Assembly: GCA_963675665.1 (NCBI GenBank)
Contig: OY776510.1
Coordinates: 160,001 to 224,000, forward strand
Length of the DNA stretch: 64,000 bases
DNA from: Spirochaetia bacterium
Lineage (GTDB): Bacteria > Spirochaetota > Spirochaetia > UBA9216
Direction of reading: 5' to 3'
Part shown: positions 4,729 to 58,361 of the stretch, piece after piece
Layout: every line of letters starts with the position of its first letter
Numbering within the stretch: the stretch's first letter is position 1
The notes under the pieces: generated by a model
What the model saw: the letters and a program-made list of their open reading frames with translations, nothing else
The model's database searches: none
What the model was told of the DNA's origin: nothing
Translations under genes and position numbers: made by a program

Positions 4729-5295
4729 ATGAATTCTGCACTGATTCTTGCCGGAGGTAATAGCTCGCGTTTCGGGAGTAACAAAGCCATTGCCGGATTG
4801 AATGGAAAACCAGTGATTGCACATATTCTATCTCAGCTTGAACCGCTTTTTTCAGAAATAATCATATCAGCAAAAGATTCAGAAGAATATTCTGGACTGG
4901 GCCTTCCTGTCTGTACCGATATTTTGCAAGGATTCGGCCCGCTTGCAGGAATACACGCAGGGCTTAAAGCAGCCTCATCTGAACATGTTTTTGTTACCGC
5001 CTGCGATATGCCGTTTATATCTAAGAAACTTATCCACCGAATGAAGAAACAGATATACAGATCAAAACCGGCAGCAGTCGTTTCCAGTCGTGGAGATTTC
5101 ATAGAGCCCTTTCACGGGTTCTATTCAAAAAGCCTTGTTCCTGTAATTGAAGAAACAGCAAAGACAGGTCACTGTGGAATATTCTCATTCCTGAAAAAAA
5201 TATATCCGGCGGTAATAGAATCTTCGGATGAATATATTTTTTATAATGTAAACCGGCCTGAAGATCTTGAAAAGCTTACTATTACCACCCTGTAA
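4729..5295 (+). CDS. mobA: molybdenum cofactor guanylyltransferase
   Basis: ILAGGNSSRFGSNKA, GPLAGI, ACDMP, EP, NVNRPED motifs. Confidence 0.9.
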   Translation: MNSALILAGGNSSRFGSNKAIAGLNGKPVIAHILSQLEPLFSEIIISAKDSEEYSGLGLPVCTDILQGFGPLAGIHAGLKAASSEHVFVTACDMPFISKKLIHRMKKQIYRSKPAAVVSSRGDFIEPFHGFYSKSLVPVIEETAKTGHCGIFSFLKKIYPAVIESSDEYIFYNVNRPEDLEKLTITTL

Positions 5296-5397: not shown

Positions 5398-6330
5398 CTA
5401 TAAAGCACCGATTTTAATTTTTACTCCGCAGTCTCTGCCGATATCAACAAGGTACTGCAGATCTTCCTTCTTTACAGGCTGCAAATCATGCAGTTTGTAT
5501 TTCCTTCCAAGGCCTTTGTATTTCATGTTGCCGAGCCTGTGATACGGAAGGATCTCTATCCAAAGCAAATTCTTCAATTTCGAAGCCCATTCGAAAATTT
5601 CGCGCTGAATATCCGGCTGATCATTAATTCCGGGAATGGAAGGAACCCGTATAATCATTTTCTTATTGAACCCGTCCAGTTTAATGATATTTTTAAGAAT
5701 TTGATCATTATTGACGCCGGTATACTTTTTATGAAGAACGCTGTCACTGTGCTTAATATCAACATAGATCAAATCAGCGTCCCGTAAAATGTGTAACGAG
5801 CTGTCTTCGTTAGTGTAGAGACATGTTTCAACTGCAACATGAAAATGATAGTCTTTGCAGGCTTTAATCAGCTCTGCTAAAAACTTTGACTGAAGAAGAG
5901 GTTCTCCCCCGGAAAAAGTAACACCCCCTCCTGATTCTATATAAAAGTCCCGGTCTTTTAAAACTTCCGCCATAACCTCGTTTACGGACATTTCCCTGCC
6001 TGTAAACTCGCGCGCACCGTAATAACATGCGCTTACACACTCGCCGCATAATACGCATTTTGAAAAATCTGTATAAATTCCGTATTTATCATCGTACCGA
6101 ACAGCCCCGACCGGACATTTTTCAACACACCGACCGCATAGACTGCATTTATTGGGAAAGTATATAATCTGCGGTTTTTTTATCTGAGATTCGGGATTTG
6201 CGCACCAGTCGCATCTTAACGGACAGCCCTTCATAAAAACAACCGTCCTTATTCCCGGGCCGTCTTCAAGACCATAACGTTCAATATTAAAAATTATACC
6301 CTTCATCTGCCCCATCCTGCTTTCAGGCAT
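5398..6330 (-). CDS. glycyl-radical enzyme activating enzyme 1 (radical SAM with 2x[4Fe-4S] ferredoxin insert)
   Basis: DGPGIRT, CPLRCDWCANPES (CX3CX2C), CSLCGRC...CP and CVLCGEC...C inserts, SGGEP, LPYH. Confidence 0.95.
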   Translation of the reverse strand: MPESRMGQMKGIIFNIERYGLEDGPGIRTVVFMKGCPLRCDWCANPESQIKKPQIIYFPNKCSLCGRCVEKCPVGAVRYDDKYGIYTDFSKCVLCGECVSACYYGAREFTGREMSVNEVMAEVLKDRDFYIESGGGVTFSGGEPLLQSKFLAELIKACKDYHFHVAVETCLYTNEDSSLHILRDADLIYVDIKHSDSVLHKKYTGVNNDQILKNIIKLDGFNKKMIIRVPSIPGINDQPDIQREIFEWASKLKNLLWIEILPYHRLGNMKYKGLGRKYKLHDLQPVKKEDLQYLVDIGRDCGVKIKIGAL

Positions 6331-8734
6331 TTACCTCCGCCCTTCCGATAAGATCGTCCTGGCAGGCGCTGTCCAGCAGGGTGAACAGACAGCTGTATCC
6401 GGAAACCCTGACCATCAGGTCTCTGTACATATCCGGATTGGCTTTTGCGGCCTTCAGGGTTGAATTGTCAACAACATTGAACTGGATCTGCTGGCCGTAT
6501 TTATCAAAAAACACCTTTATCAGCGCGGCAATCCGCTTCCGCCCTTCAAGCGATTTCAAAATACCGTTTGCAAGCCTCATATTCAGTATGGCGCCCTTCT
6601 GGAACCATTCCGTCGGCATTTTACTGACGGAAAGCACTGTGGCAGTTGCACCCATTTTCTCCGCCCCGTTGCACGGTGAAATACCGTTGTTGACCGGCTG
6701 ACCGGCTTTTCTTCCGTCGGGAGTTGCTCCGATTAACTTGCCGAACGCAACATTTCCGGTAACGGGGCTGATATTGGTTGAGAAACACCCGGGAACCGGT
6801 CCTTTGCCGTACCTTGAATTCCTGAAATCCTTGTGAAAACTGCTGCCTATAAAGTCGGCGATTCTTACAGACCATTTATCAACTGAATCTTCATCGTTTC
6901 CGAATTTAGGAGCCTTGTTTATCAGAAGCTGCCTTATTTCCTCACCGGTTGGAGATGTTGTCGTATCCTCGAAATTTGAGGACAGGGCATGCATCAACTG
7001 CTCTGAGGTTACCAGATTTTTATCAAATACAGCGTATTCGATTGCCCCGAGAGAATCTCCGGCTGTATTTATTCCGGCTGTCGGCCCTCCGTCTGCGGAA
7101 TAAACGGAACCTCCTTCAATCAGTGAAAGCCCCCGCTCTACGCAGTCTGCTATCAGCGATGATGAAAACGCGTTTATGTCCCGTTCCCTGTGCAGGTCGT
7201 CGCTGATATGTTCCATGATAACAATCAAACTCATGTAATAATTCAGCTGCTTTTTAAACGACTCGAATAATTCTTCAGTACTTTTCAGTTCAGTCAGATC
7301 TCCGTCGCCGGGCAGCAGGGTTATTCCTTTAGCAGGGTCCGTCCCGTTATTCAGGGTTATTTCGAGGACCTTTGCGATATTTAAGCCGCCGCCTTTTGCC
7401 GCAAAATCCCATTTTCCCGGAATAGAAGCTTCAATGCATCCTACCGGGGCCCAGTTTACGGCATCTTCACGGCTAACCCCCATACCTGTAAGGGTTCGTA
7501 TGAAAGCCTTGTCATTATAGAATGCAGGCATACCGCCTTTATGCTTCTGTACAGCCTCCAGAGCCCTTGTTATAAAACCGTCATCGGTACCTTCAAACCA
7601 CTTAACGGAAAGTGATGACGTAAAAAGCTTTACATCCTCATAGGCTTCGATACAGAGCCAGGAAAGATCATTAACAGCGTCCTTTCCGTCAACGGTCTGT
7701 CCTCCGATGGAAAGATTTATTGCCATATGGTAATTCGGCATCATCTGGGTTTCATCCCAGCAGCGCAGTTTATTCAGCGAATTCATTTTTATAACGAACA
7801 GTTCAATTAATACAAGCGCTTCCTCTCTGCTCAAAGAACCGTCTTCAATGTCCGCTGAATACAGCGGATACAGGTACTGATCAAATCTACCGACAGAATT
7901 TGAATGACCGTTGGACTCAATATAATACATCAGAAGTATGAACCAAACGCTCTGAACACCTTCCCTGAAATTCCGCGCGGGATTTTCCGGGACGTTCGCA
8001 CAGCTTTCCGCCATTCGCATCAGTTCCGCTTTTCTTTCAGGATCCTTTTCCTGTTTCGCTTCTTTCAGACATAACTCTGAATAGCGATTTGCAAACCGGA
8101 TAACAGCTTCATTTGAGATAACAACGGCATTTAAAAACCAGTGTTTTTTTATTGCATCCGGCTGCGTCAAATCGAGTTCTTCAAGCTTCTTTTTTGCATG
8201 ATTGATAACATATCTCAATCCCTTCCTGACGACCAGCTCAAAATCAGGAAGCATATTCCCCAGAGCTGCAACTATAACCCAGGTATTGTCTATTACGCCC
8301 ATCTCCCAGGCCTGAGTGCATTCAGGCGGCAGCCGTTTTTTATAGCTTTCAAAAAGGGTCTTTCCTTCCCAGTATTGTATTATTTCCAGCAATTCAGCCC
8401 TTACTTCGTCGCTGCAGATGAACCTGTCGGCAGGTCTCCGGTCCAGCGGATAGGGGATCCCGTTAAGATCATTTTTAAGCCATTCGGTTGAATATTCAGG
8501 GTAGATAGGTGCAGCCCAGGGCCTGCTTGTCTGATTGCCGACAATAAGTTCGCCTTCCGATACAAAAAGCGACATATTATCAAGTACATTTGCAAATGCC
8601 TTTGCTCTTCTTACCGCTATATTTTCGCCCTCGGTCTGCTTCATTGACTGTGTAAAAAACCTGGCCCTTTCGCTGCAGATTTCGGGTACTGTTTCAAAAA
8701 AACGGCTTCGTAAACTTTCGATTCTTGTATCCAT
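6323..8734 (-). CDS. glycyl radical enzyme 1 (YbiW/eliminase-like clade, substrate unknown)
   Basis: IESNGHS, GRFDQY, Cys loop WAPVGCIEASIPGKW, ATPDGR, Gly loop RVSGYS (Gly ~779). A single Cys, so not PFL. Confidence 0.93.
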   Translation of the reverse strand: MDTRIESLRSRFFETVPEICSERARFFTQSMKQTEGENIAVRRAKAFANVLDNMSLFVSEGELIVGNQTSRPWAAPIYPEYSTEWLKNDLNGIPYPLDRRPADRFICSDEVRAELLEIIQYWEGKTLFESYKKRLPPECTQAWEMGVIDNTWVIVAALGNMLPDFELVVRKGLRYVINHAKKKLEELDLTQPDAIKKHWFLNAVVISNEAVIRFANRYSELCLKEAKQEKDPERKAELMRMAESCANVPENPARNFREGVQSVWFILLMYYIESNGHSNSVGRFDQYLYPLYSADIEDGSLSREEALVLIELFVIKMNSLNKLRCWDETQMMPNYHMAINLSIGGQTVDGKDAVNDLSWLCIEAYEDVKLFTSSLSVKWFEGTDDGFITRALEAVQKHKGGMPAFYNDKAFIRTLTGMGVSREDAVNWAPVGCIEASIPGKWDFAAKGGGLNIAKVLEITLNNGTDPAKGITLLPGDGDLTELKSTEELFESFKKQLNYYMSLIVIMEHISDDLHRERDINAFSSSLIADCVERGLSLIEGGSVYSADGGPTAGINTAGDSLGAIEYAVFDKNLVTSEQLMHALSSNFEDTTTSPTGEEIRQLLINKAPKFGNDEDSVDKWSVRIADFIGSSFHKDFRNSRYGKGPVPGCFSTNISPVTGNVAFGKLIGATPDGRKAGQPVNNGISPCNGAEKMGATATVLSVSKMPTEWFQKGAILNMRLANGILKSLEGRKRIAALIKVFFDKYGQQIQFNVVDNSTLKAAKANPDMYRDLMVRVSGYSCLFTLLDSACQDDLIGRAEVNA

Positions 8735-8749
8735 ATAACCCCCCTCTCC

Positions 8750-10276
8750 TCAGGCTCCGCAGGCAGCTAATTCTTCGCTTACCATTGGCGTAAGCAGATC
8801 TGTCTTACACAGGAACCTCTCACTGTTATCAAATTCATGAACAACTTTACCTTTTTTCAGGACAAGTATCCTGTCTGAGAGGCTTAAAATTTCTTCAAGT
8901 TCATCTGATATGAATATTATGGATGTTCCTTCTTTTGCCAGGGAATCGATAAGACTATATATCTCTTCCTTGGCACCGACATCAACACCCCTGGTCGGCT
9001 GATCCAGTATTATCACTCTTGAACCGATGGAAAGCCACTTTCCGATTACTACTTTCTGCTGGTTTCCGCCGCTTAAAAAACGGACTTCCTGTTCTTCCGA
9101 ATGACATTTTATGCAAAGGAAATCTATCATTCTGCGGATCGATTTCCGCATCGCCCCGTAATTTATAACACCATATTTCGTGCTTTTTTTCAGGGATGCA
9201 AGCGAGATATTATCCCTGATTGTTCTTTTCAAAACAAGCCCTTCTGTTTTCCGGTCTTCAGGTATAAATGCCAGTTTGGCCGACACCGCCTTTGCGGGGG
9301 AACTAACATTTATCTTTTTACCGTCGAGGATTATTTCTCCGGAGGCGGTCTCTTCAGCTCCAAAAATCATCCGCGCCAGTTCCGTTCTGCCGGAGCCGAC
9401 AACTCCCGCTATTCCCAGAACTTCTCCCTTTCTCAGGTTAAAAGACACATCCTTTACGATTCCGTTCTTCTGGGTCAACTCCTTTACCTGAAGAACGGAA
9501 TCTTCCGACAGGTTGTCCCGGATATATTTTTTCTCGGAGTCCGAACAGTGACCTATCATGCATTCAACAATCTGCTTTTTTGTAAAGTCTTCGATATTCC
9601 GGGTTGTTACATTCTTTCCGTCACGAAGCACCGTCACCCTGTCCGCCACAGTAAAGATCTCTTCAAGAAAATGTGAAATATAAATAACAGATATACCTTG
9701 ATTACTAAGATCTTTTATTACTGAAAATAATTTTTCCGTTTCGCTGATTGAAAGCGACGAAGTAGGCTCATCCATTACCACAACACTTGATTGAATTGCC
9801 ACAATTCGTGCAATAAGAACAAGCTGCTGCATTGCCGGAGATAACGATTCTACTTTCCGGTTAGCGTCAATTGGAAAACCGAGGGAATCCAGCAGCGCCT
9901 GAGCTTCCTTTCTCATCGAGGGTCTGTCGATTACAGGAATGTTTTGCCCTTTTTTTTCCCTGCCTAAAAATATATTCTCGCTTACATCGAGATTTGTTAC
10001 TAAATCCAGTTCCTGATGAATCATGGTTATGCCGTGGTTAAGTGCATCAATGGGATCATTAAAATTCAATATTTCATTTTTTAAAACAATTTCTCCAGTA
10101 TAATTAACATAGATACCGTTCAGTATTTTCATCAAGGTTGACTTTCCAGCGCCGTTTGCTCCTACAATCGCATGGACTTCCCCTCGTTTAACATCAAGAT
10201 TGACGCTGTCAAGCACCCGCACTTTATCAAATTCTTTTGTGATATTTTTCATCTGAAGAACATAACTGTCATTCAT
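8750..10276 (-). CDS. sugar (CUT2) ABC transporter ATP-binding protein
   Basis: GANGAGKST, MDEPT, second NBD with LSGGNQQKV; RbsA/MglA-like tandem NBD. Start placed at MNDSYVL. Confidence 0.93.
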   Translation of the reverse strand: MNDSYVLQMKNITKEFDKVRVLDSVNLDVKRGEVHAIVGANGAGKSTLMKILNGIYVNYTGEIVLKNEILNFNDPIDALNHGITMIHQELDLVTNLDVSENIFLGREKKGQNIPVIDRPSMRKEAQALLDSLGFPIDANRKVESLSPAMQQLVLIARIVAIQSSVVVMDEPTSSLSISETEKLFSVIKDLSNQGISVIYISHFLEEIFTVADRVTVLRDGKNVTTRNIEDFTKKQIVECMIGHCSDSEKKYIRDNLSEDSVLQVKELTQKNGIVKDVSFNLRKGEVLGIAGVVGSGRTELARMIFGAEETASGEIILDGKKINVSSPAKAVSAKLAFIPEDRKTEGLVLKRTIRDNISLASLKKSTKYGVINYGAMRKSIRRMIDFLCIKCHSEEQEVRFLSGGNQQKVVIGKWLSIGSRVIILDQPTRGVDVGAKEEIYSLIDSLAKEGTSIIFISDELEEILSLSDRILVLKKGKVVHEFDNSERFLCKTDLLTPMVSEELAACGA

Positions 10277-10289
10277 TCCAAACCTTCTT

Positions 10290-11279
10290 TTAATCTCTCT
10301 TTGTATTGGATAAACTGTCAATACCGACTGCACCGAGAATTATCATTCCGGTAATTGCTGACTGCCAGAAGGGATTAACCCCGAGCAGCTGAATAAGATT
10401 GAGTATCAGCCCCAGAATTATAGTTCCTATAACGGAACCCAGGATATTTCCGCGACCTCCTTCCAGCGAAATTCCCCCGACGATACACCCGGCTATTGCA
10501 GTAAGCTCATACCCCTGACATGCGTCCGCAGTCGCCATCAATACCCTTAAATTTAATAAAACCCCTCCGAGAGACGCTAACATTCCACAGTACATAAACG
10601 CCAGAATTCTCAGTTTTTGAGTCTTCACCCCGGAAAGCCATGATGCGTTTTCATTTCCGCCTATTGCATACAGATACTGACCGAAGGTGGTGTATCTCAG
10701 GACAAAGAACAGAACAACAGCAAGAACAATCCATATTGACGCTGAAATTGGAAAAGGTCCTATTTTTCCGAGACCAATCACGCCGTATGCCCTTGGAACC
10801 CCCATTACAGGAAAACCGTTGGTTACAATATAAATAATACCCCTTCCGATAGTCATTGTTCCCAGAGTCGTTACAAAATAGTTGATTTTAGCTTTGGTTA
10901 TTAATAGACCGTTTACAAGACCCATAATGCAGCCTACCGACAGGCCGCCTGCAACACCAATAACAAATCCGAACTCACGGAAAAGGTGTGTTGAAACTAT
11001 TGCCGTCAGCGCTGCCGTTGAGCTGACTGATAAATCAATCGCTCCAGTTATAAGAACAAAAGACATTCCCAGAGCAATGGTTCCATATACTGCATTATGG
11101 TTAAAAATATTAAAAATGTTTTCAATAGAACGAAATGTAGGTGAAATTATTCCGCTTACAATAAACATACCTATTAAAACGAAGAACATGGTATTTTCTC
11201 TTTTCTTCAACACCCTGCCGAGTCCAAGAGCGTTTTGCTTTATAAAACTACCCTCAACTCCGTTTATGATTTCTGACAC
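10290..11279 (-). CDS. sugar ABC transporter permease (RbsC-like)
   Basis: GAIDLSV, FVTTLG, YAIGGNENASWLSGV, IAGCIVGGISLEGGRG motifs. Confidence 0.93.
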   Translation of the reverse strand: MSEIINGVEGSFIKQNALGLGRVLKKRENTMFFVLIGMFIVSGIISPTFRSIENIFNIFNHNAVYGTIALGMSFVLITGAIDLSVSSTAALTAIVSTHLFREFGFVIGVAGGLSVGCIMGLVNGLLITKAKINYFVTTLGTMTIGRGIIYIVTNGFPVMGVPRAYGVIGLGKIGPFPISASIWIVLAVVLFFVLRYTTFGQYLYAIGGNENASWLSGVKTQKLRILAFMYCGMLASLGGVLLNLRVLMATADACQGYELTAIAGCIVGGISLEGGRGNILGSVIGTIILGLILNLIQLLGVNPFWQSAITGMIILGAVGIDSLSNTKRD

Positions 11280-11336
11280 TTTAGCATCTCCTTATCTCAA
11301 CCGGAAAACCGGCTTTTCCTTCATTATGCATCTAAC

Positions 11337-11369
11337 GGGAACCTCAGAACAAAGTGCTCTGAGGTTCCC
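11337..11369. terminator. intra-operon stem-loop between the binding-protein and permease genes
   Basis: GGGAACCTCAGA...TCTGAGGTTCCC, flanked by an outer aaaaccggctt/aagccggtttt pair; typical position for an mRNA stabiliser or attenuator. Confidence 0.65.
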
Positions 11370-11424
11370 TCATTAGAAGCCGGTTTTTCTGAAACCGGCC
11401 CGTTAATATACAATCTTTTGATCT

Positions 11425-12396
11425 CTACCAGGCTGCTCCATAATTCCCGATATTATCAACAGTTACTTTCGGCAAATCAGTCCAGGTCTGTTTTTCTATG
11501 TTCCTGTCTCCGTTTAGGTAGCGAACAGCCACCTCTATACCGAGATTACCCTGTTCCTGTGGATCCTGAAGAACCGTACCGTAGATTTCTCCTTCATGGA
11601 TTGAATCAACAACTTCCTGAGGCAGATCAAAACATACAATTTTACCAAGAAGTTCATCTCTTCCTGAAGACTTTACCGCTTCAACAGCGCCAAGGGCTTC
11701 GTAAGGCCCCTGCAATACGATTGCGTCAATTTCTCCCTTTTTATACTTTAAAAGGAAATTCTCAACTACAACTATTGTTTTAGCCTTATCCCAGTCTTCC
11801 GGCTGTTTTGCAAGGATATTGATACCCGGAGCATTTTTGGAAATATAATCCTCAAGCCCCTGTTCCCTCATTACCTGAGGCGAACTTCCGAGGGAGCCCT
11901 GACAGAGGACGATATTTCCATTACCAGCCAGCAATTCATCAAGGATTTCCCCCTGAATAGAGCCTCCGGTACGGTCATCACATCCTACATATGTTACTAT
12001 ATCAGGACCTTCTCCGAGCTGACGGTTTACTGTTACTATAGGAATACCCGCCGCGATGCATTTATCAGCTACAGGAACCAGTGCATCAAGCTGCGCTGCG
12101 ACAATGATAACAAGATCTTTCTTCTGAATGATAAAAGTTTCAATCTGGCTCATCTGAACATTCGGATCTGATTTTCCGTCCTGAATATCAAGATTTGCGC
12201 CCAACCTGTCTGCAGCACCTTCCATACCCTTCATCATACGAACAAAAAAGGGAATTTTGAAATCGGCCATAGCAACGCCGATGTTATACCCCTGACTGGA
12301 TGTTCCTGTATCTTCCTGTGATCCGTTTGCAAAACTAACCCCGCATACCAGCAGCATTGCAGTTGCCATCACGATTACCAGCATCTTTCTTTTCAT
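11425..12396 (-). CDS. sugar ABC transporter substrate-binding protein (RbsB-like)
   Basis: Signal peptide then ANGSQE; PFF, GIPIVTVNR, YVGCD, GTVLQDP motifs; SD AAGGAGG. Confidence 0.92.
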   Translation of the reverse strand: MKRKMLVIVMATAMLLVCGVSFANGSQEDTGTSSQGYNIGVAMADFKIPFFVRMMKGMEGAADRLGANLDIQDGKSDPNVQMSQIETFIIQKKDLVIIVAAQLDALVPVADKCIAAGIPIVTVNRQLGEGPDIVTYVGCDDRTGGSIQGEILDELLAGNGNIVLCQGSLGSSPQVMREQGLEDYISKNAPGINILAKQPEDWDKAKTIVVVENFLLKYKKGEIDAIVLQGPYEALGAVEAVKSSGRDELLGKIVCFDLPQEVVDSIHEGEIYGTVLQDPQEQGNLGIEVAVRYLNGDRNIEKQTWTDLPKVTVDNIGNYGAAW

Positions 12397-12493
12397 GCTA
12401 ATCCTCCTTAAAATAATTACCCTGCCCTGATTTTCCAGGACTTAATACTTTACGATTACCACGTCATTTCCGGAAATAATTTCTCATGGTTGA

Positions 12494-12562
12494 TGTATTA
12501 TAGATTACGTTTACATATAAGTAAAATAAATATATTTAATGTTTACTATGCATTAAACTTAT
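12494..12562 (-). promoter_or_regulatory. promoter of the ABC-GRE1 operon with LysR-type box
   Basis: TTTACT-N17-TATAAT on the minus strand; T-N11-A box (12549-12561) centred near -65; 34/44 nt identical to 19689-19732. Confidence 0.7.
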
Positions 12563-12576
12563 ACTATAATAATTAT

Positions 12577-13461
12577 ATGAACCTGGATTGGTACAGAGTA
12601 TTTTTTCAATTAGCTAAAAGCGGCAGTTTTTCAAAAGCCTCAAAGGAACTGTTTGTAACCCAGCCTGCCGTCAGTAGAACAATCGCACAACTGGAAGACT
12701 TTTTAGGGTGTGAATTATTTTACAGATCGCGTCAGGGTGTAACTTTAACAGAACAGGGAAAGGTCTTGTATGAGAACCTAGAAAATGCATTCGATTCAAT
12801 CTCAGCTGCGGAAAAAGCTATTGAAGAAATACAAACCCTGAAAAAAGGGGAAATAAAATTCGGAGCAAGCGATATTTTATTTAGAAACTATCTTGTTGAG
12901 ATTCTAAAACTGTTTAAATCGGAGTATCCTAATATAAAAATAAAAATTGTCTCACATAGTACTTCAAATATTATAAACCTGCTAAAAAGAGGAGAAATCG
13001 ATTTCGGCATAGTAAATTTACCGGTTGCTACTGACAAGAAACTAGCATTTAAACCCATCATAACAGTACAGGACTGCTTTATAGTGGGCGAAAAATATAA
13101 ACATCTGGTTGAAAAAAGAATTCATCTTAATGAATTAGTTGATTATCCTTTTATACTATTGAATAATTCAACAAATACCAGAAAACATATAAACCAGCAT
13201 TTTAAAAATAATTCCATCTCGATTATTCCTGATTTTGAATTTGGAAATACTGATTTGCTTGTAGAATTTGCAAAAAATGATTTTGGTATTGCTTATGTCT
13301 GCAAAAATTTTGTTAAACAAAATCTTGAATCAGGCCAGGTTTATGAAATAAATCTTTATGAAGAGATACCTCCACGAGAAATCAGTGTTGCCTGGTTAAA
13401 CAGCATACCTCTTTCGGTAGTGTCAAAAGCCTTTATTGAGATGCTGGATAAACCTGTATAA
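12577..13461 (+). CDS. LysR family transcriptional regulator
   Basis: GSFSKASKELFVTQPAVSRTIAQLE HTH, LFYR..GVTLTEQG; divergent from the ABC operon; TATAAT 6 nt before ATG 12577. Confidence 0.95.
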   Translation: MNLDWYRVFFQLAKSGSFSKASKELFVTQPAVSRTIAQLEDFLGCELFYRSRQGVTLTEQGKVLYENLENAFDSISAAEKAIEEIQTLKKGEIKFGASDILFRNYLVEILKLFKSEYPNIKIKIVSHSTSNIINLLKRGEIDFGIVNLPVATDKKLAFKPIITVQDCFIVGEKYKHLVEKRIHLNELVDYPFILLNNSTNTRKHINQHFKNNSISIIPDFEFGNTDLLVEFAKNDFGIAYVCKNFVKQNLESGQVYEINLYEEIPPREISVAWLNSIPLSVVSKAFIEMLDKPV

Positions 13462-13507
13462 AAACCAGGTGTGAATTATTAACAGTCCAATAAATATCTG
13501 TATCTCT

Positions 13508-14125
13508 CTAGAAATTTAAATCAAATATATCCTGCGGTTGTTTAAAAATATATTCTGCATTAATATCTGTAATTGTTTTAGCACCCCAGGATGCCAAACC
13601 GAAATCTATTTCCGCATTTATGGCACAAAGGCTGTCATACAGAGTATCTCCAATATAGATCACGGAAGACGGATCAGCTCCTGATAATTCCAAATATTTC
13701 AATAATGGAGCCGGCTGCGGTTTATGGTTTAGAGTGTCATCCACACAAACGGTATATTTAAAATATTTTTTTAAATCAAGATTATCAAATAATTTATCCA
13801 GAGCATTTCTCGTTCTGGAGGTTACAATTCCCATAGTGATGTCTTTATTATATAAGGCGTCAAGCATGTTTCTTATACCGTTAAATAAAACAAGCGATTT
13901 ACTTTCATGTCTTAAATAAAAATCCCATTCCTCCTTGGCCTGTTTAATATTCTTAATTCCCAATAGTCTCAAAGCCTCTACGCCGGGAATACCTAATACA
14001 AAAGACAATTCTTTATTTTCTTTTTTTATTCCATATTTTTCGACAACTTTACTCAATGTTGAGATAATTACATTTTCAGAATCAATCAATGTACCGTCTA
14101 CATCGAAAACAAAATTTAGATACAT
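13508..14125 (-). CDS. HAD-IA family phosphatase
   Basis: FDVDGTLID, VTS, HKPQP, YIGDTLYD motifs; SD AAGGA before ATG 14125. Confidence 0.9.
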   Translation of the reverse strand: MYLNFVFDVDGTLIDSENVIISTLSKVVEKYGIKKENKELSFVLGIPGVEALRLLGIKNIKQAKEEWDFYLRHESKSLVLFNGIRNMLDALYNKDITMGIVTSRTRNALDKLFDNLDLKKYFKYTVCVDDTLNHKPQPAPLLKYLELSGADPSSVIYIGDTLYDSLCAINAEIDFGLASWGAKTITDINAEYIFKQPQDIFDLNF

Positions 14126-14222
14126 AAAAACATCCTTATACAACAATAAACAATTGCTATAAACATATACAGGGAGTATCCGGGCGATCATAAATGATAT
14201 ATCCAATCAGGTATGAAGCTTT

Positions 14223-15164
14223 TCATTGGCCGCTGCCGCCAACACTTACCATAAACCCAAAATCCGTGAGAATATTTGCTGTTTTTGTAATCTCTTCAAG
14301 GCTTATCCCCTGCTGGTTTTTAAAACTGTAATCCTTATCCAACCCTTCCCATTTTGTCTCTCCGGCCTGATGGAAAGGCATCAGATGTATTTCCTCAATT
14401 CCCGCAGCTTTACAAAAGTTCCCCATAGTCTCAATTTCCCGTGTCGAATTGTTTACACCGGGAATTAAGGGATATCTTACAATAATCTTTTTCCCCTTGT
14501 CCACGGCATCACGTAAATTTTGCCGGATCAGCTTGTCATCAACTCCTGTATATTCTCTGTGCATATCTGCATTCGGGTGTTTAATATCAAAGAGTATTAA
14601 ATCAGCGGGAAGGATAACACGACGAAAATTTTCAGTTGAAGCATACCCACAGGTCTCTATTGTGATATGGATATCGTCTTCTTTCAGAGAAATTATAAGC
14701 TGTTCCGCGAAAATACTTTGTAAGGTTACCTCCCCGCCGGACAGCGTAACACCGCCGCCGCTGTTCATATAGAAAACAAGATCGCGACTGACAATTTCTC
14801 TGAGCTCATCAACCGTATAAAATTTCCCTATCAGCCTCCGCGCCTCCGACGGACATACTTTTGCGCACTCACCACAGTCGGTACATTTTAAACGATCAGT
14901 TATCAGTTTTTCATCACTGATGTATATTGCGTCAGATTTACAGACTTCGGCACACTTTCCACAACCGATACAGGCATCCTGATCATAAATTATTTCAGGC
15001 ATCATTCTGAACGTTTCAGGATTATGACACCATTTACACCTAAGAGGACACCCCTTGAAAAAAACTGTGGTCCGGAGCCCCGGACCGTCATGGACACAGT
15101 ATCTCTGAATATCCGAAATTACAGCAATGGTGCCGGATTTTATTCTATCTTGCTCCCTCATCAT
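14223..15164 (-). CDS. glycyl-radical enzyme activating enzyme 2 (radical SAM with ferredoxin insert)
   Basis: HDGPGLRTTVFFKGCPLRCKWCHNPET, CIGCGKC and CTDCGEC..VCP inserts, SGGE, MPFH. Confidence 0.95.
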   Translation of the reverse strand: MMREQDRIKSGTIAVISDIQRYCVHDGPGLRTTVFFKGCPLRCKWCHNPETFRMMPEIIYDQDACIGCGKCAEVCKSDAIYISDEKLITDRLKCTDCGECAKVCPSEARRLIGKFYTVDELREIVSRDLVFYMNSGGGVTLSGGEVTLQSIFAEQLIISLKEDDIHITIETCGYASTENFRRVILPADLILFDIKHPNADMHREYTGVDDKLIRQNLRDAVDKGKKIIVRYPLIPGVNNSTREIETMGNFCKAAGIEEIHLMPFHQAGETKWEGLDKDYSFKNQQGISLEEITKTANILTDFGFMVSVGGSGQ

Positions 15165-17437
15165 ATACCATGCTTTACCCTTTTTATCATAATATCCTGA
15201 TGCATCTTCGGCAGTGCGACAAAATACCCCGAATACCCCCCTATGCGCACTCTGAGCCCCTTATAAGCCTCCGGTTGTTTCTGGGCATTACGCATCATTT
15301 CCTCACTGACTCCGGTAACAGTCAAGATGTTTCCTCCCAACTCCATAAAGGAGCGGATAATTCCTGTTAGCCTTTGTATCCCTTCATCACCAGCTGCCTC
15401 ATTTGCATTAATTTGTATATCCAGCGGGCAACCGCCGAAATACGGCAGAAGATCCGGCTTGGTGCATGATAAAATAGCTGCTGTCGGACCGTTTGTATCA
15501 CAACCGACTGACGGAGAATAATTACTGGATATTGTGGTTTCTGCACTGCGTCCGTCCGGAGAAGCCCCGCAGCGACCTCCCAATTTTGCGTAATGCTCAA
15601 ATGTGCCCAACGCGAGAGGAAGCATCATCTTCGGGTCTTCCGCCTGTAAATCCTTCACATAAGCAGCTAAATCACCCAATATACGTATCATCAGCTCATC
15701 CGCATAATTATCATCGTTTCCGAATTTTAAGCCCCTTGATGCAAGTGTTTCACGAAGAACCTCATAACCTTTAAAATTTTCACTGGTAGCATTTATTATC
15801 TGCTTCATAGTGAATTTATTTTCCTCAAAAACAAATTTCCTGATTGCGGCAAGAGAATCGACGGTATTTGCCATTCCGGAGATTATAGGCGGATACATCA
15901 TATACCTGGCCCCGCCGTTCGTAATATCCAGACCGTTTTCAATACAGTCGTCAATAAATATCGACAGCATCGGGTCCGGTGCGATTGTGCTGTGCACCCC
16001 GTAGATATTTCTTCTTGTTCTGATTCCATCGCTTATCGCTTTCTTCATATGGGAAAGATAAGCATCATACAGCTGCTCAAAAGCCGTAAATTCTTTCGCA
16101 TCCCCGGTATCGAGCTCACATTCTCTTGTCTTCCGAACCAGGCTGCAGCCGTTATGAAGCGTATATTCCAGCTGTAGAAGGGATTCAATATCAACATGGT
16201 TGTGATCAGTACATCCGGGGATAAGCGTTTCCCAGCACCCGTCATTTGAATAATCGCGCGCATCCTCCAGCGGCACGCCCTTTTCGGTAAATCCCGGTAT
16301 TATTTTTTCATCATTATAAATGGCAGGTTCGCCGCTTCCCGAACGCAGTATTCGTGCACATTCCTCATATAAACGCGGTGGAGATCCTTTAAAAAACCGG
16401 ACTGACATCACTGGAGCTATCAGTTCAAGCTTATTCCATAACCGCAAGATCATATAAGTCAGCTCGTTTGTCGCATCGTTGCCATCCCTTTTCTGACCGC
16501 CGATTATTGCATTCATAAACCAGGAATTTGCTCCGATTCCGTAGTTCCCGGTTCCGGGCGCAGTAAAATACGGAGGGACCTTTTCTGAAAGATCGATAGC
16601 CTTTCCGCCCGGGGCAAAATCCGTTACCTCTGCATGGCTTTCCCAGGAATCCGGACTTGTCTGGATGCGTTCACTGAATTTTGCAAGCCAGGAGGCTAAA
16701 AGCTCTTCCGCATATTCCTGTGATATCAAACCGCTTTCAGTGTCCTCTTTATAGAAAGGATAGAAGTACTGGTCGCAGCGCCCGACAGGAATCAAATCCA
16801 TTGTGGATTGGAGGGCAATATAAACAATCCAGAAACACTGTAATGCTTCATGAAGCGTCTCCGGCGCATTTTCCGGTGTTTTTTCAAGGATCCTTGCGAT
16901 TTCCAGAAGTTCATTGCGCCTGGCTGCATCGGATTCATTCAACGATTCAAACTGCGCGATTTTAGCGTAACGTTGAGCGAAACGTTTCAGGGCATCCAGA
17001 GATATAAACATCGCTTCATATTCAGATATCTTTCTTTCATCACTTTCAAGCTTTAATTTTTCTAAAATCTTTTCACGATAACCATGCAATCCAAGCTTTA
17101 GAAGCTTCTCAAAATTTATAGGCAGATGAGCCCATACAGAGTTTACCCCGACCCCTTTTTTTGCTGCCTCCTCTTTTTCTTCAGGGGTGGCATATTCAGG
17201 GAATTCACGTCCCAGTTCGCTGCTGGCCATTCCGGCGATGCCGACAATCAATTCGTAAGGTCTGATATATGCCGGCATGTTATTTATCATTAAATCTATT
17301 GCCATTGCCTTGCGTATAACAATCGGCAAAGATCCGGCCTTTTCGTCCGTCAATACAGTGAGCTCACTGCCCCACCATTCTTTTTTTTCTTTGAAACCGT
17401 CAAACATGCTTTTTTTTATTTTTTCTATTCTGGTCAT
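15161..17437 (-). CDS. glycyl radical enzyme 2 (divergent DGCWE-type, substrate unknown)
   Basis: GRCDQY, Cys loop YSNDGCWETLIPG, KFGNDD, ASPDGR, Gly loop LRVRIGGYSGYF (Gly ~734); stop overlaps the activase 2 start. Confidence 0.92.
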   Translation of the reverse strand: MTRIEKIKKSMFDGFKEKKEWWGSELTVLTDEKAGSLPIVIRKAMAIDLMINNMPAYIRPYELIVGIAGMASSELGREFPEYATPEEKEEAAKKGVGVNSVWAHLPINFEKLLKLGLHGYREKILEKLKLESDERKISEYEAMFISLDALKRFAQRYAKIAQFESLNESDAARRNELLEIARILEKTPENAPETLHEALQCFWIVYIALQSTMDLIPVGRCDQYFYPFYKEDTESGLISQEYAEELLASWLAKFSERIQTSPDSWESHAEVTDFAPGGKAIDLSEKVPPYFTAPGTGNYGIGANSWFMNAIIGGQKRDGNDATNELTYMILRLWNKLELIAPVMSVRFFKGSPPRLYEECARILRSGSGEPAIYNDEKIIPGFTEKGVPLEDARDYSNDGCWETLIPGCTDHNHVDIESLLQLEYTLHNGCSLVRKTRECELDTGDAKEFTAFEQLYDAYLSHMKKAISDGIRTRRNIYGVHSTIAPDPMLSIFIDDCIENGLDITNGGARYMMYPPIISGMANTVDSLAAIRKFVFEENKFTMKQIINATSENFKGYEVLRETLASRGLKFGNDDNYADELMIRILGDLAAYVKDLQAEDPKMMLPLALGTFEHYAKLGGRCGASPDGRSAETTISSNYSPSVGCDTNGPTAAILSCTKPDLLPYFGGCPLDIQINANEAAGDEGIQRLTGIIRSFMELGGNILTVTGVSEEMMRNAQKQPEAYKGLRVRIGGYSGYFVALPKMHQDIMIKRVKHGI

Positions 17438-17474
17438 ATTGCTCTCCTGATGTTTAGTTTCATGCCTGCTAAGA

Positions 17475-19370
17475 TTACTGCTGACTTATATACTCCCCGA
17501 CCCAGTCAAGATTTAAGGACATCAGGCGGGTTTTTGAAGGCTCACCTTTTTCTCCGACCCACCCCGCCATTTCGTAATACTGCTCTCTTGTTTCATTAAA
17601 ATCGGCTTCATTAACGACCTTCCCTTCCGAAATACCATCCGCTAAAGGAGTCGACAGTTTAAGCGGTAATTTATCGTCATCCTTATCAAATCCTTCGCGG
17701 ATATTGAATGCGCGCATCATCTGCAAACCGCGCTCTCCAACCATCAGCATCTCGTAAAGATTTGTTTCCCACCCTGTCGCAAAGTTGATAGCGTCCACCA
17801 GTTCATCAAAGCTGTACGCTCCGCCGAAACCGAATATCATAATGCATACCGATGCTGTATCAACCAGAGCGTATGCTCTTTGAGTCCGCCAGAACAATTT
17901 CGCTTTTTCGGAGTTAAGCTCATCAGGAGCTTCAATCCTGTCGAATCCAAAACTTTTCAGCCTATTCGACAGAGGATAGGTCCCAAGGCTCGGATCCATT
18001 TCCACTGAAACATGATCCGAGCCGAAAGATACCAATGCATATGACAACCCTAAAACGGCTTTAGTCTGCGGCATATGCGCAGGAAACTCTTTCTTTTTAA
18101 CCGTGATTAAAAGCTTACTGCTGTTATTTCCGAAAATTCCGGAAAGCCTCTCCGAGCCGAGAGCGATAAGCTTGCCGAATCCAGTTCCAGTACCAGTCAT
18201 TTCAGCCAACCGGATTACTGATTCGGAATTACCGAAATGGCAGTCGAATCCTTCCGTATCTTCCGCAGTGATAATTCCCTTCTCAAAACATTCCATGATA
18301 AAGCCCATTGTTGCACCGAACGAGACTGTATCCATTGCATACATGGCGCAAATCTCATTGATTTTACAGATAGCGAGCTTATCGGATATCCCGAGATTGG
18401 AACCGCACATTCCGATTGTTTCATATTCAGGTCCACCGTACTTTGCATCTATCCGGTCGGTCTTGCTTTTGTCCACATGACGCTTGCAGCTTTGTGCACA
18501 GGCATAACACGTGCCCGGTTTGATTATTTCTTCATTCCAGGCTTCCGGCATCAGTTTATCAACATTTTCGAATGTTCCTGATGTCCAGTTTCTGGTCGGC
18601 AATCCCCCCAGGGCGGAATTTTCCACAACACAGCCTATTGTTCCGTTCTGTTTGAAACTCTGAAGACCGACGCTTTCACGTATTCTGTTAATTCCCTTCC
18701 GGGCAAAGATTTTCATACCTTCCGGATCAAAAAAATCCGGTTTCTGCGTTCCGCGAACGGCAATGGCTCTTAAATTCTTGGAACCCATCACCGCACCGAG
18801 CCCCCCCCTGCCGTTAAAATGCGCAAGTTCATTTACAATATTAGCGTATCTACACAATGTTTCGCCCGCGCAGCCTATTTGTGCTACTCTGATTTTTTGA
18901 TCTTCATGATAATTTCTGATATGTGCTTGCGCTTCTCCTGTTGTTTTTCCCCATATTTCCGCTGCATCAAGCAGTGAATATTCTCCGTCACAGATCCACA
19001 GATACGAAGGAGTTTCCGCTTTTCCGGTCAGAACTATCGCATCAAAACCGGCTTTTTTCATCTCAGGCGCAAAGTAACCGCCGCCCTCACTTGTCGCAAT
19101 CCCGCCGGTAAGCGGAGATTTGGCTGTTACGGAATGCCTGGAAGCACCGGAAATATTTGATCCTGTAAGCGGACCGACTGTAAAAGCAATAACATTGTCC
19201 GGCGATAATGGATCAACACCCTGTTCTGTTCCCTGCATTACATAGTAAACACCCATACAGCTGCCGCCGACATACTTACGATAGAAATCTTCATTTGGTC
19301 TTTCTATTTCAAATTTCTGTTCAGTTAAATTAATATGCAGTATTTTACCGTTGTATCCTTTCATCCTCAC
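17475..19370 (-). CDS. aldehyde:ferredoxin oxidoreductase family (W/Mo-pyranopterin)
   Basis: GYNGKILHINLT, KSPLTG, GRGGLGAVMGSKNLRAI, CYACAQSC, GPEYET, YYEMAGW motifs; start may be 19364. Confidence 0.93.
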   Translation of the reverse strand: MRMKGYNGKILHINLTEQKFEIERPNEDFYRKYVGGSCMGVYYVMQGTEQGVDPLSPDNVIAFTVGPLTGSNISGASRHSVTAKSPLTGGIATSEGGGYFAPEMKKAGFDAIVLTGKAETPSYLWICDGEYSLLDAAEIWGKTTGEAQAHIRNYHEDQKIRVAQIGCAGETLCRYANIVNELAHFNGRGGLGAVMGSKNLRAIAVRGTQKPDFFDPEGMKIFARKGINRIRESVGLQSFKQNGTIGCVVENSALGGLPTRNWTSGTFENVDKLMPEAWNEEIIKPGTCYACAQSCKRHVDKSKTDRIDAKYGGPEYETIGMCGSNLGISDKLAICKINEICAMYAMDTVSFGATMGFIMECFEKGIITAEDTEGFDCHFGNSESVIRLAEMTGTGTGFGKLIALGSERLSGIFGNNSSKLLITVKKKEFPAHMPQTKAVLGLSYALVSFGSDHVSVEMDPSLGTYPLSNRLKSFGFDRIEAPDELNSEKAKLFWRTQRAYALVDTASVCIMIFGFGGAYSFDELVDAINFATGWETNLYEMLMVGERGLQMMRAFNIREGFDKDDDKLPLKLSTPLADGISEGKVVNEADFNETREQYYEMAGWVGEKGEPSKTRLMSLNLDWVGEYISQQ

Positions 19371-19385
19371 CTCAATTCTTTAGAA

Positions 19386-19646
19386 TCAGCCGCCTGATAA
19401 AAAAGGTATTATCATAAAAGAATCCCCTTCTTTTACCGTAATATCTTCCTTAATCGCTCTAGCCAAAGGAATCCCTCTGATCATCATGGTATACGGGGTC
19501 TCGATTCCGTAATTTGTATCCAAAAAACTCGAAACATATTGTGAAGCATTTCTGATTTCATCATCAACATAAAGCGTTTCGAATTTTACACCTGTTATAT
19601 TTTTATATTCACCAATATATTCAATCGTGATTTTGACACCTTTCAT
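19386..19646 (-). CDS. MoaD/ThiS family sulfur carrier
   Basis: 86 aa ending EGDSFMIIPFLSGG (C-terminal GG), next to the AOR gene. Confidence 0.85.
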   Translation of the reverse strand: MKGVKITIEYIGEYKNITGVKFETLYVDDEIRNASQYVSSFLDTNYGIETPYTMMIRGIPLARAIKEDITVKEGDSFMIIPFLSGG

Positions 19647-19688
19647 ATGGCCTTTGTATGAAATTCCTTTTATATCAATAATCTGCTT

Positions 19689-19757
19689 TGTATTATATTT
19701 CAGAATTATATATAAGTAAAATGCATATTTTTTATAATATATATAATTATTATTTAT
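19689..19757 (-). promoter_or_regulatory. promoter of the MoaD-AOR-GRE2 operon with LysR-type box
   Basis: TTTACT-N17-TATAAT; ATA-N9-TAT box at 19743-19757, at the same offset as the box in 12494-12562. Confidence 0.7.
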
Positions 19758-19950
19758 ATATCAGGATATATAAAACAATAATCAATTTCAAATTTGCAAA
19801 CAGAATTTTATCATGTGCATACATTGATACTGCTAACAAAGCCCAACTATGGAAGAAGTTAATAGTAGTATTCATATTGAAGTGTTTTCAATAAAAATCA
19901 GTAACACTAAAAAAATTACAGCATGACACCGGGCCCCGAAAATAAATAAC

Positions 19951-26086: not shown

Positions 26087-26689
26087 TCAGCTCTTCCTTC
26101 CGGTGAGCCTCGAAAACAGCGACTGCCGCTTTCCCCCTTCGGAAGCTCCGCTTTTCCCGGAAAGTTCCGAATCGGAAGATATGGCTGAAGATGTGTCCCT
26201 GTCGCCTTCTGCGGGAAGCGTGTTATCCGCCCAACCGGTGCCTACCGCAGGCACAATTCGCCTGATGAAGGGCACTGTTCCGTCAAGGCTTCTTCCCGCC
26301 TCCTGCTCACATTCCTGAAGCACTATATGCCAGGCAGGAGCAAACCCCGGGGCTCTTACCGACATTTTTTCTATTGCCGACTGGTAAACCTGAAGCTGAA
26401 GCTTCTCTCTTCTGCCCGGTTTCGCCGAAAGGTTCTGCAGCGATGTCTTAAGGTTCGAGTTCCTGTTTTTCAGGTCGTCCATTTCTTTCTTCATACCGTT
26501 GATTGACGCAGCCTCCAGGTCAATACGGTTGACAAGACTGTTTCGAAGTTCACGAACTTCTCGCTTATTCCTGGATTTAAGCACCAGGATTCTGATCCCG
26601 AAAATAAGCCATGCTATTAAAAACCCGGCTGCAAAAGCATATACTACATTCTGATCAACCGGTCCGATTTCAAATACTGGTACTGCCAC
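26087..26689 (-). CDS. hypothetical membrane-anchored coiled-coil protein
   Basis: N-terminal TM helix, coiled coil, APGFAPAW segment, Ser-rich tail. Confidence 0.6.
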   Translation of the reverse strand: MAVPVFEIGPVDQNVVYAFAAGFLIAWLIFGIRILVLKSRNKREVRELRNSLVNRIDLEAASINGMKKEMDDLKNRNSNLKTSLQNLSAKPGRREKLQLQVYQSAIEKMSVRAPGFAPAWHIVLQECEQEAGRSLDGTVPFIRRIVPAVGTGWADNTLPAEGDRDTSSAISSDSELSGKSGASEGGKRQSLFSRLTGRKS

Positions 26690-53893: not shown

Positions 53894-53901
53894 ATCTACT
53901 C

Positions 53902-54882: not shown

Positions 54883-54897
54883 TCTCTTCCGTTCCCC

Positions 54898-56376: not shown

Positions 56377-56413
56377 TTCAAACACCCCAAATTCTTTTTA
56401 TAGTATTTCATTG

Positions 56414-56451: not shown

Positions 56452-56473
56452 TTTTTATTATTTTTGTTCTAAT

Positions 56474-57442: not shown

Positions 57443-57466
57443 TTTTTGAACCTCCATTTGTTCTTG

Positions 57467-58357: not shown

Positions 58358-58361
58358 CTGA

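Follow-up and report, generated by a model that had tools for sequence, protein, structure and literature searches.

A stretch of 64,000 nucleotides from contig OY776510.1 of a Spirochaetia bacterium (forward-strand positions 160,001 to 224,000; hereafter the window) carries, between its positions 5398 and 19757, a real, conserved and uncharacterised regulon with two glycyl radical enzymes (GREs). The segment holds eleven genes, all intact (Table 1). On the minus strand, operon 1 encodes the solute-binding protein (SBP), permease and ATPase of a CUT2 sugar ABC importer followed by GRE1 and its activase (AE1), whilst operon 2 encodes a MoaD-like protein, an aldehyde:ferredoxin oxidoreductase (AOR), GRE2, its activase (AE2) and a HAD-family phosphatase; a single lysR gene lies between the two on the plus strand. 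A preliminary description made from the DNA alone gave this order and orientation and spoke of two very dissimilar, single-cysteine GREs with one activase each, all of which is borne out: GRE1 and GRE2 share 27.8% identity (AE1 and AE2, 39.2%), each activase gene directly follows its GRE, and each GRE has one cysteine in a CxE loop (GCIE in GRE1, GCWE in GRE2) besides a glycine loop. The two operons have promoters of one design and the GRE pair recurs elsewhere. On balance we favour the reading that the segment is one LysR-controlled anaerobic catabolic regulon, in which a two-radical route would process one small polyol or anhydro-polyol and an aldehyde product would be oxidised by the AOR. 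The regiochemistry of the GREs, the aldehyde and ketone products and their fates are read from gene context and phylogeny; we infer the substrate and the order of the steps too.

Both operon promoters contain identical TTTACT-17-TATAAT hexamers and are 77% identical over 47 nucleotides (33 of 44 positions, about 75%, in the core). They had been called near-identical, which is too strong for such a figure, but the sharing itself is real and beyond chance, since the two are reciprocal best matches in the genome. Run as a probe against both genome strands, the operon-1 core finds the operon-2 core as its best non-self match (33/44; next 29); the operon-2 core finds the operon-1 core (33/44), with the next match close at 32. 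A related metagenomic locus, L002, extends the comparison. When the window's genome is probed with the promoter that precedes GRE2 in L002, the two best matches are the window promoters (49 and 44 of 75; next 43), and when L002 is searched with either window promoter the second-best plus-strand match lies directly before its GRE1. The four 75-nucleotide promoters have 29 columns in common. Upstream of the −35 hexamer 15 of 46 columns are common to all four, against a shuffle mean of 2.7 with 0 of 20000 shuffles reaching 15, a figure that is optimistic because the fourth promoter was chosen by similarity. In this region all four promoters carry T-N11-A boxes centred at about −65, the position typical of sites for LysR-type transcriptional regulators (LTTRs), and about −43. 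T-N11-A is given as the LTTR recognition motif in PMC8407307. The arrangement is that of an LTTR regulon, with a divergently transcribed regulator and predicted T-N11-A recognition and activation sites. As the same design is found in the reshuffled L002, the two-operon, one-regulator plan survives gene reshuffling. The closest LysR homologue has 294 residues, like LysR itself. The −10 hexamer of lysR ends 6 nucleotides before the ATG with no ribosome-binding site (window 12542-12579), which suggests a leaderless transcript overlapping LysR's own binding box.

L002 is a metagenomic contig of 46,460 bp on which one strand encodes counterparts of LysR (63% identity), GRE2 (76%), AE2 (63%), the HAD protein (45%), GRE1 (76%) and AE1 (63%), with a CUT2 importer and then a Zn-dehydrogenase after AE1; the gene order differs from that of the window. 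Among the 91 LysR matches listed, all 8 at 63% or above (the window's own included) are apparently on contigs with a close GRE1 or GRE2, a pairing that rests on equal contig sizes in bp, L002 alone having been read as DNA. Both GREs were matched for three of the seven non-window contigs (5,378,709, 75,954 and 46,460 bp, the last being L002 and the first two apparently closer relatives with lysR and both GREs), GRE2 only for three short ones (8,088, 8,332 and 14,462 bp) and GRE1 only for one (44,790 bp). In run X7, from another study, a 7.2-kb contig runs collinear at about 91% with window 12769-19992 (lysR to operon-2 promoter), and most of GRE1 is covered at about 87% by a second contig. The searches of relatives' genomes were samples, partly incomplete, and their negatives mean not found rather than absent: no GRE2 turned up at E≤1e-150 in ten further genomes of the family, no GRE1 at E≤1e-250 in 400 further genomes of the phylum, for which only some candidates were scored, and no LysR in a sample of 20 relatives; GRE1 at E≤1e-200 was found in 1 of 10 family genomes, as a 54% paralogue type. 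A GTDB scan with the GRE2 alignment gave no locus above 50% identity among the best 80 of 145, a scan of viral contigs gave 3 loci, all irrelevant, and the ESM Atlas gave generic GRE clusters only. The exact twin arrangement looks rare and its ecological weight small. Judged by homology, the conserved core is LysR, GRE2/AE2/HAD, GRE1/AE1 and some CUT2 importer. The preliminary description had treated the GRE pair, the AOR and the ABC system as one set; pair, LysR, boxes and a CUT2 importer do recur in L002, whereas the AOR and the SBP are exchangeable.

By named-enzyme cut-offs, alignment and tree, neither GRE falls in a characterised family, and on this count the earlier suggestion of a candidate undescribed pathway is not refuted. 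Neither passes the NCBIfam equivalog models for HypD, CutC, HpfG, HpsG, PflD, IAD, HPAD or PFL (best named model: GRE1 521 and GRE2 396 against 1100), the subfamily model TIGR01774 is missed too (640 and 420 against 678), and the sulfite lyases IslA/IseG/HpsG rank low among the sequence matches of both. PF01228 is over its cut-off for both proteins, and the Gly loop, CxE Cys loop, barrel and dedicated activase place GRE1 and GRE2 in the PFL-like GRE family, with radical formation and turnover predicted. C433/E435 of GRE1 and C401/E403 of GRE2 align with C433/E435 of glycerol dehydratase (GD) and C441/E443 of YbiW; G779 of GRE1 (134/134 rows) and G734 of GRE2 (20/20) align with GD G763. The Cys-loop numbering of GD and YbiW agrees with that in a GRE review (PMC13450708). 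The AlphaFold model of GRE1 (pLDDT 80, active-site loops low-confidence) predicts the 10-stranded barrel, with VIA Z scores of 43.6-40.5 to eliminases/isomerases (8IOF: Z 43.6, rmsd 2.8, 769 aligned). That of GRE2 (pLDDT 73; the insert and several active-site loops under 50) likewise predicts the barrel fold, with Foldseek TM scores of about 0.8 to GRE eliminases (0.81 to 5I2G).

GRE1 has GD as its best sequence match (38%). In the tree its family and YbiW-like rows form one side of a branch (100/99 without a long PFL row, 96/93 with it), and grouping of the family with GD and propanediol dehydratase (PD) was rejected (p-AU 0.0006). The RYG.GP loop is common to GRE1 and YbiW and is lacking in GD, PD, PflD and HypD. 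N160, W326, Y335, K447 and S656 are invariant in 134/134 rows of the GRE1 family. GRE1 keeps two of six GD/PD pocket residues, namely H164 together with H281, S282, Y/F339, D447 and Y640, which we take to line the pocket; the smaller residues at the GD-Y339 and Y640 positions suggest a larger pocket in GRE1. YbiW H165, H334 and R453, presumably phosphate ligands, are replaced in the alignment by N160, E328 and A445. A role of K447 in binding an anion was considered; it was dropped because E/D328, a conserved acid, could be the partner of K447 and because GRE1 does not retain YbiW's phosphate residues. Several pocket positions are changed together in the window and L002 GRE1 relative to the wider family.

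That wider family numbers at least 120 relatives at ≥56% identity. Its gene context was taken from 8 matches among 401 genomes belonging to one order of Firmicutes, 4 among 400 genomes of the class and the genome's own 56% paralogue, which left 12 loci at 56-62%, many in genomes that are close kin, once L117 (a 44% match) and L102 (3.7 kb) were set aside. A rhamnulokinase-like kinase, a fuculose-phosphate-aldolase-like (class II) aldolase and LacI each occur in 11 of the 12, the kinase and aldolase scoring below the RhaB and FucA cut-offs; the window/L002 subclade lacks the kinase-aldolase pair. A ketone product would be expected of GRE1 from its grouping on the YbiW side and from these neighbours. 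YbiW takes hydrogen from a secondary carbinol to give a 1-deoxy-ketose (PMC13450708, section 5.7). The GRE1 family probably makes ketoses or deoxy-ketoses, as judged by gene context and tree. The operon type LacI-GRE-activase-rhamnulokinase-like kinase-CUT2 ABC-class II aldolase is seen in L106-L116 and L011; no isomerase open reading frame (ORF) is apparent in the ORF lists of these operons, for which no profile scan for isomerases was made. The GRE there may occupy the aldose-to-ketose slot or open an anhydro ring, and that it fills the isomerase slot as a radical aldose-to-ketose isomerase is a speculative and rather unlikely proposition. Other relatives have contexts of their own. At L011:6197-7606 a protein of 469 residues lies between the AOR and the activase of the GRE1 paralogue; its first 200 residues contain a class II aldolase domain, and its C-terminal half is unassigned. 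L117 (G853:C46) places its 44% relative beside a xylulokinase over cut-off and an E1-E2-E3 set of 2-oxoacid/acetoin dehydrogenase type, neighbours that would fit a 1-deoxy-ketose product split to acetyl-CoA. A Chloroflexota plasmid record (L121:1-11325, CP069395.1) has a YbiW-side GRE and activase at the end of an annotated D-allose operon with alsK, rpiB, alsB, alsC, an epimerase-like gene and ROK.

GRE2 is 28-30% identical to GD, PD, YbiW, PflD and HypD. The GCWE rows form one clade at 100/100, with at least 100 relatives at ≥42%, gut Firmicutes among them. Only two of the GD/PD pocket features persist in GRE2, namely H164 and an aromatic residue at 339; its H104, kept in 20/20, aligns with GD His164. 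In GD this histidine protonates the leaving OH (PMC13450708, section 5.6.1). Neighbourhoods were counted for the best 80 of the 145 loci confirmed in the GTDB scan: 12 at 29-32% identity were dropped and 68 used, which with L001, L002 and L012 made 71, and a GCWE ORF flanked on either side by 5 kb or more was present in 43 of the 71. Of these 43, 19 have an aldehyde dehydrogenase (ALDH) only within 7 kb, 9 an AOR only, 1 both and 14 neither (18, 9, 0 and 16 under stricter clustering), counts that include close kin, so that the loci are not independent. An ALDH or AOR thus lies within that distance of the GRE in 29/43 GCWE loci versus 1/11 GRE1-family and 1/13 other GRE loci. In L001 (GRE2 78%) an ALDH directly precedes GRE2, in the position the AOR takes in the window. 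Because of these ALDH/AOR neighbours we would assign an aldehyde product to GRE2, acting as a terminal 1,2-dehydratase that makes a 2-deoxy aldehyde. The earlier proposal that an aldehyde product is oxidised to an acid gains independent support from the same neighbours.

Several GCWE loci contain further gene sets. In a 40% subclade (L039, L043, L055, L065, L068, L050) the GREs adjoin genes for Fe-type alcohol dehydrogenase (Fe-ADH), AbfD-like and 4-hydroxybutyrate CoA-transferase-like proteins, and often a split transketolase; the AbfD and 4-hydroxybutyrate labels come from homology. Such neighbours are a possible C4 precedent for GCWE GREs. Another twin-GRE cluster, in three Clostridium species (L085, L088, L090), comprises ALDH, a GCWE GRE, an activase, RpiB, PFK, a second GRE and MFS; the second GRE is 36% identical to GRE1 and related to the GRE of the genome's L015. 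At L044:6835-13220 a GCWE GRE is accompanied by a phosphotransferase system (PTS) EIIC gene and a HAD protein 39% identical to that of the window, which suggests dephosphorylation before the radical step. The window HAD is 45% identical to the one after AE2 in L002 and 39-41% to those near the GCWE GREs of L044 and L083.

The window AOR aligns with that of Pyrococcus furiosus (1AOR; E 2e-102) over the Fe-S cysteine, GPEYE and DH motifs. Both AFOR_N and AFOR_C domains are present with their Fe-S and pterin-site motifs; a bound metal and aldehyde oxidation are predicted. Among the proteins compared, its nearest relatives from outside its own genome are seven AORs beside GCWE GREs (47-65%). A TupA-like protein in the genome (215 bits, below the 400 cut-off) is circumstantial for tungsten. 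The MoaD label given earlier is tentative for the small protein upstream: it ends in GG and is 34-41% identical to small proteins directly upstream of related AORs, but the assignment is weak, as the window protein has no Pfam match and two of its homologues match ThiS below threshold (19.5 bits against 22.5).

The SBP of the window falls outside RbsB (136 bits, cut-off 337), with Asn and Trp where ribose binders have Asp and Phe. The same two residues are found in PDB 4RSM, which we presume to be a D-threitol complex. The best other 50%-cluster representative is 48% identical to the window SBP.

We propose the following route. A small, unphosphorylated, neutral polyol or anhydro-polyol (C4-C6) would enter by the CUT2 ABC system. 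GRE2 would abstract hydrogen at a terminal carbinol and eliminate the neighbouring OH to give a 2-deoxy aldehyde, which the AOR (an NAD-type ALDH in other hosts) would oxidise to the acid with reduction of ferredoxin. GRE1, in a YbiW-like manner, would take hydrogen from a secondary carbinol and cleave the adjacent C-O bond to yield a deoxy-ketone. Both GREs would act on the same carbon skeleton with opposite regiochemistry and without a kinase; it is more likely that they differ in regiochemistry (ketone- versus aldehyde-forming) than in stereochemistry only. The HAD protein most likely would dephosphorylate substrate or product on which other kinases have acted. A phosphorylated intermediate may yet be involved, since the HAD gene is conserved and a PfkB-type kinase gene adjoins lysR in L002. 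The most specific form of the route, with both GREs in series on one unactivated C4 polyol or anhydro ring and a tungsten AOR, leading to acetoacetate and reduced ferredoxin and needing neither kinase nor aldolase nor microcompartment, is put forward tentatively, as an unlikely case. Naming the substrate as a tetritol (erythritol, threitol or an anhydro ring) that loses two oxygens to become acetoacetate is, if anything, a slightly bolder guess. The tetritol would pass through 3-oxobutanal or 3,4-dihydroxybutyrate with the GREs in either order, and the cluster's own enzymes would suffice as far as acetoacetate. This version is chosen as the simplest that needs no kinase or aldolase; the arguments for C4 would be this parsimony and the 4-hydroxybutyrate genes of distant GCWE loci, nothing else. 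Thiolase, CoA-transferase and AbfD-like genes, read from homology as able to take up C4 acids, are present in the genome.

Several observations weigh against the two-radical route for one polyol. These can be summarised as (i) L002 has a PfkB-type kinase before lysR and the Zn-dehydrogenase, for neither of which the window cluster has anything closely similar (best matches in the genome, 45% and 29%, lie outside it); (ii) no AOR or ALDH occurs within the 22 kb examined of the 46-kb contig of L002; (iii) the L002 SBP is only 25% identical to that of the window, is not orthologous and passes the D-allose cut-off (369.6 against 335), which speaks for a C5/C6 ligand of ribo configuration rather than a tetritol and is the chief argument against one fixed substrate; (iv) on the 75,954-bp contig GRE1 is split in two; (v) GRE1 lacks the GD His164 equivalent (N160 in 134/134 rows); (vi) 14 of the 43 GCWE loci have neither oxidising enzyme nearby, and close kin inflate the counts; and (vii) an AOR paralogue of 63% identity, which groups with the window AOR and the GCWE-adjoining AORs, sits in an unrelated cluster of the same genome (L013), and the genome has at least 16 AOR matches.

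An unlikely alternative that nonetheless carries some weight is that the GREs work in parallel: one inducer would call up two enzymes for two related compounds (stereoisomers, or the ring and open forms of a polyol), with only the GRE2 branch feeding the AOR. Each GRE does have its own promoter and activase, and the clades are mostly separate, GRE1 not being found in 5/5 genomes with more distant GCWE GREs and no close GRE2 in 12/12 wider GRE1-family loci. HpyG and HpzG, which act on two isomers (PMC13450708, section 5.6.1), offer a parallel. Yet a single importer serves both GREs, and the close GRE1 and GRE2 subclades travel together with one LysR clade. Furthermore, the window GRE1 has lost the family kinase and aldolase, and its pocket residues are changed together with those of L002 GRE1, so that the GRE1 product needs another outlet.

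Rather improbable, in our estimate, is a phosphorylated route with some genes elsewhere, in which a pentitol or hexitol (ribitol/allitol type) would become a 2-deoxy-aldose or 1-deoxy-ketose; after phosphorylation of this product an aldolase of DeoC or FSA type would cleave it, the AOR would oxidise released acetaldehyde and the HAD protein would act as an overflow valve. The HAD gene is conserved beside GRE2 as YbiV is beside YbiW, L002 offers its PfkB-type gene and D-allose-type SBP, the genome has four DeoC homologues, and two GCWE loci (L020, L023) have DeoC over cut-off together with a ROK-type gene. Against this, no third promoter copy was found ahead of a kinase or aldolase gene (three of the next-best promoter matches were checked, and by reading frame starts none leads into such a gene), and the residues presumed to bind phosphate in YbiW are not kept in GRE1. 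A non-sugar substrate (an amino alcohol, hydroxy-amino acid or organosulfonate, with chemistry of the CutC, HypD/HplG or IslA/HpfG type) seems very unlikely. The CxE GREs include such enzymes (PMC13450708), GRE1 K447 and E328 and GRE2 E614 are charged conserved residues of the pocket region, and at several contact positions the window SBP is unlike ribose binders; but window and L002 alike have a CUT2 importer, the genes around family members encode sugar kinases, aldolases, transketolases and polyol dehydrogenases, and every named-enzyme model scores well short of its cut-off. That two unrelated cassettes lie together by chance, which the GRE-rich genome, its CUT2-adjoining GRE loci, the AT-rich promoters and the one-base margin of one probe might suggest, is hardly credible and largely refuted already by the recurrence of a reshuffled L002 with two promoters of the same design, the reciprocal promoter matches and a LysR clade tied to both GRE subclades.

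The host genome is of spirochaete type and 5.15 Mb in size. It has 10 GRE loci, several adjoining CUT2 importers, and with so many GRE and AOR matches gene proximity alone is little proof. The ORFs of 5398-19757 include no shell, PTS, kinase, aldolase or CoA-acylating dehydrogenase gene, as first described. The genome's four BMC-domain matches lie about 190 kb from the cluster, at 370.8-373.1 kb of the genome only; the cluster itself has neither the shell genes nor the acylating aldehyde dehydrogenase of a GRE microcompartment (GRM) locus. A terminator scan gave a count not above chance (10 against 12.6). The adjacent mobA (4729-5295) was considered as a cluster member and rejected: it is convergent and keeps its own neighbours in 2/2 congeners that lack the cluster there. 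Five congeners were searched, and in the two with a mobA match the cluster is not at that site; in G006 (100% complete) the counterpart of window gene 26087-26689 comes directly after mobA, and unrelated genes follow mobA in G007. The simplest reading is that the cluster is a patchy, probably acquired island. A 1516-residue protein at window 21180-25730, with two BcrAD/BadFG ATPase stretches and DUF2229, is not at the G006 site either, and we presume a resemblance to PlsA, an anaerobic plasmalogen synthase in fused form. Another cluster with a CUT2 importer (window 52931-64000 and slightly past its end; L013) has a short-chain dehydrogenase/reductase, a Zn-dehydrogenase and a MoaD-like/AOR pair without a GRE. 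Elsewhere in the genome, G000:C1:4923238-4933859 encodes Fe-ADH, 3-hydroxyacyl-CoA dehydrogenase, thiolase, crotonase, CoA-transferase, AbfD-like and aminotransferase proteins, by homology apparently a 4-aminobutyrate/4-hydroxybutyrate fermentation cluster.

Table 1 Genes and predicted control elements of the twin-GRE segment, in window coordinates
Feature	Coordinates	Strand	Remarks
AE1, activase of GRE1, 310 aa	5398..6330	-	radical SAM triad and two ferredoxin-type 4Fe-4S motifs; TIGR02494 336 bits (cut-off 174); 8-nt overlap with GRE1 stop
GRE1, 803 aa, uncharacterised clade on YbiW side of tree	6323..8734	-	C433, E435, G779
CUT2 sugar ABC ATPase	8750..10276	-	ATG 10276 likely start; ORF extends to 10333
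CUT2 sugar ABC permease	10290..11279	-	PF02653
CUT2 solute-binding protein	11425..12396	-	PF13407; not a canonical ribose binder
Promoter, operon 1	12497..12571	-	-10 12497-12502, -35 12520-12525, T-N11-A boxes 12527-12539 and 12549-12561
Divergent promoter-like site of lysR	12542..12570	+	overlaps distal box; consensus match only
LysR-type regulator, 294 aa	12577..13461	+	PF00126 and PF03466; ATG 12577, listed ORF from TTG 12490
HAD-family phosphatase	13508..14125	-	PF13419; likely start ATG 14125, ORF extends to 14206
AE2, activase of GRE2, 313 aa	14223..15164	-	TIGR02494 339 bits (cut-off 174); 4-nt overlap with GRE2 stop
GRE2, 758 aa, uncharacterised GCWE clade	15161..17437	-	H104, C401, W402, E403, G734; ~40-aa insert at ~258-300
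Aldehyde:ferredoxin oxidoreductase, AOR/WOR family	17475..19364	-	PF01314 and PF02730; ATG 19364 likelier than GTG 19370
MoaD/ThiS-like sulfur-carrier candidate, 86 aa	19386..19646	-	ends in GG; no Pfam match of its own
Promoter, operon 2	19692..19766	-	-10 19692-19697, -35 19715-19720, T-N11-A boxes 19722-19734 and 19744-19756

In its available sections the 2026 review of the GRE family lists characterised eliminases and isomerases, none of them from the GRE1 or GCWE clades, and notes entire GRE clades without experimental validation (PMC13450708). Neither those sections nor literature searches, in which subscription journals were mostly uncovered, gave a serial two-GRE pathway, a GRE pair with an AOR, or, in the searches, a GRE product linked to a tungsten AOR. 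The locus offers three independent ligand handles (the binding protein, the LysR effector domain and the substrate range of the AOR), which together with reconstitution of two gene pairs make both reactions directly testable. If the serial C4 reading were true, it would amount to a new kind of radical-only sugar-alcohol fermentation and would give functions to two widespread, unstudied GRE clades at once.

Amongst known systems YbiW/PflD of E. coli (PDB 8ID7, 8ID0), described in the review as 'anhydroglycolysis' C-O lyases (PMC13450708, section 5.7), come closest to GRE1 in several respects. YbiW is likewise a CxE GRE with a long activase, lies on the same side of the tree (100/99), has the GKW and RYG.GP features and Ser at GD-Y640, and has a HAD phosphatase (YbiV) in its cluster, as the window does. 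However, GRE1 is only 34% identical to YbiW (PflD 32%), has N/E/A for H165/H334/R453 and is not its orthologue; the genome's own YbiW-like protein is encoded by another gene (L014). Further differences are that the window cluster has an ABC importer where a PTS would stand, lacks an FSA aldolase, is under LysR control and adds an AOR and a second GRE.

GD (1R8W/1R9D) and PD (5I2G, 9RCO) are the best sequence matches of both GREs (GRE1 37-38%, GRE2 28%). Their terminal-diol-to-aldehyde chemistry is that proposed for GRE2, which keeps the His164 equivalent. Unlike GD, GRE1 has H164>N, Y339>A, D447>K and Y640>S, and GRE2 has H281>D, S282>L and Y640>G, a CxE loop that contains Trp, and the insert of about 40 residues; the window cluster lacks the microcompartment, acylating dehydrogenase and Fe-ADH of GD/PD systems. 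The ketose-1-phosphate pathways for fucose and rhamnose proceed by an isomerase, a RhaB/FucK kinase and a FucA aldolase. The wider GRE1 family, in its LacI-GRE-AE-kinase-ABC-aldolase operons, resembles them, whereas these operons have no apparent isomerase ORF and the window subclade has neither kinase nor aldolase. Finally, the window AOR is like the tungsten AORs (P. furiosus 1AOR; 9MQX, 8C0Z) in its two AFOR domains over cut-off and its aligned motifs, and differs from them in being encoded by a single gene, accompanied by a MoaD-like partner, and in belonging to a subclade that occurs beside GCWE GREs.

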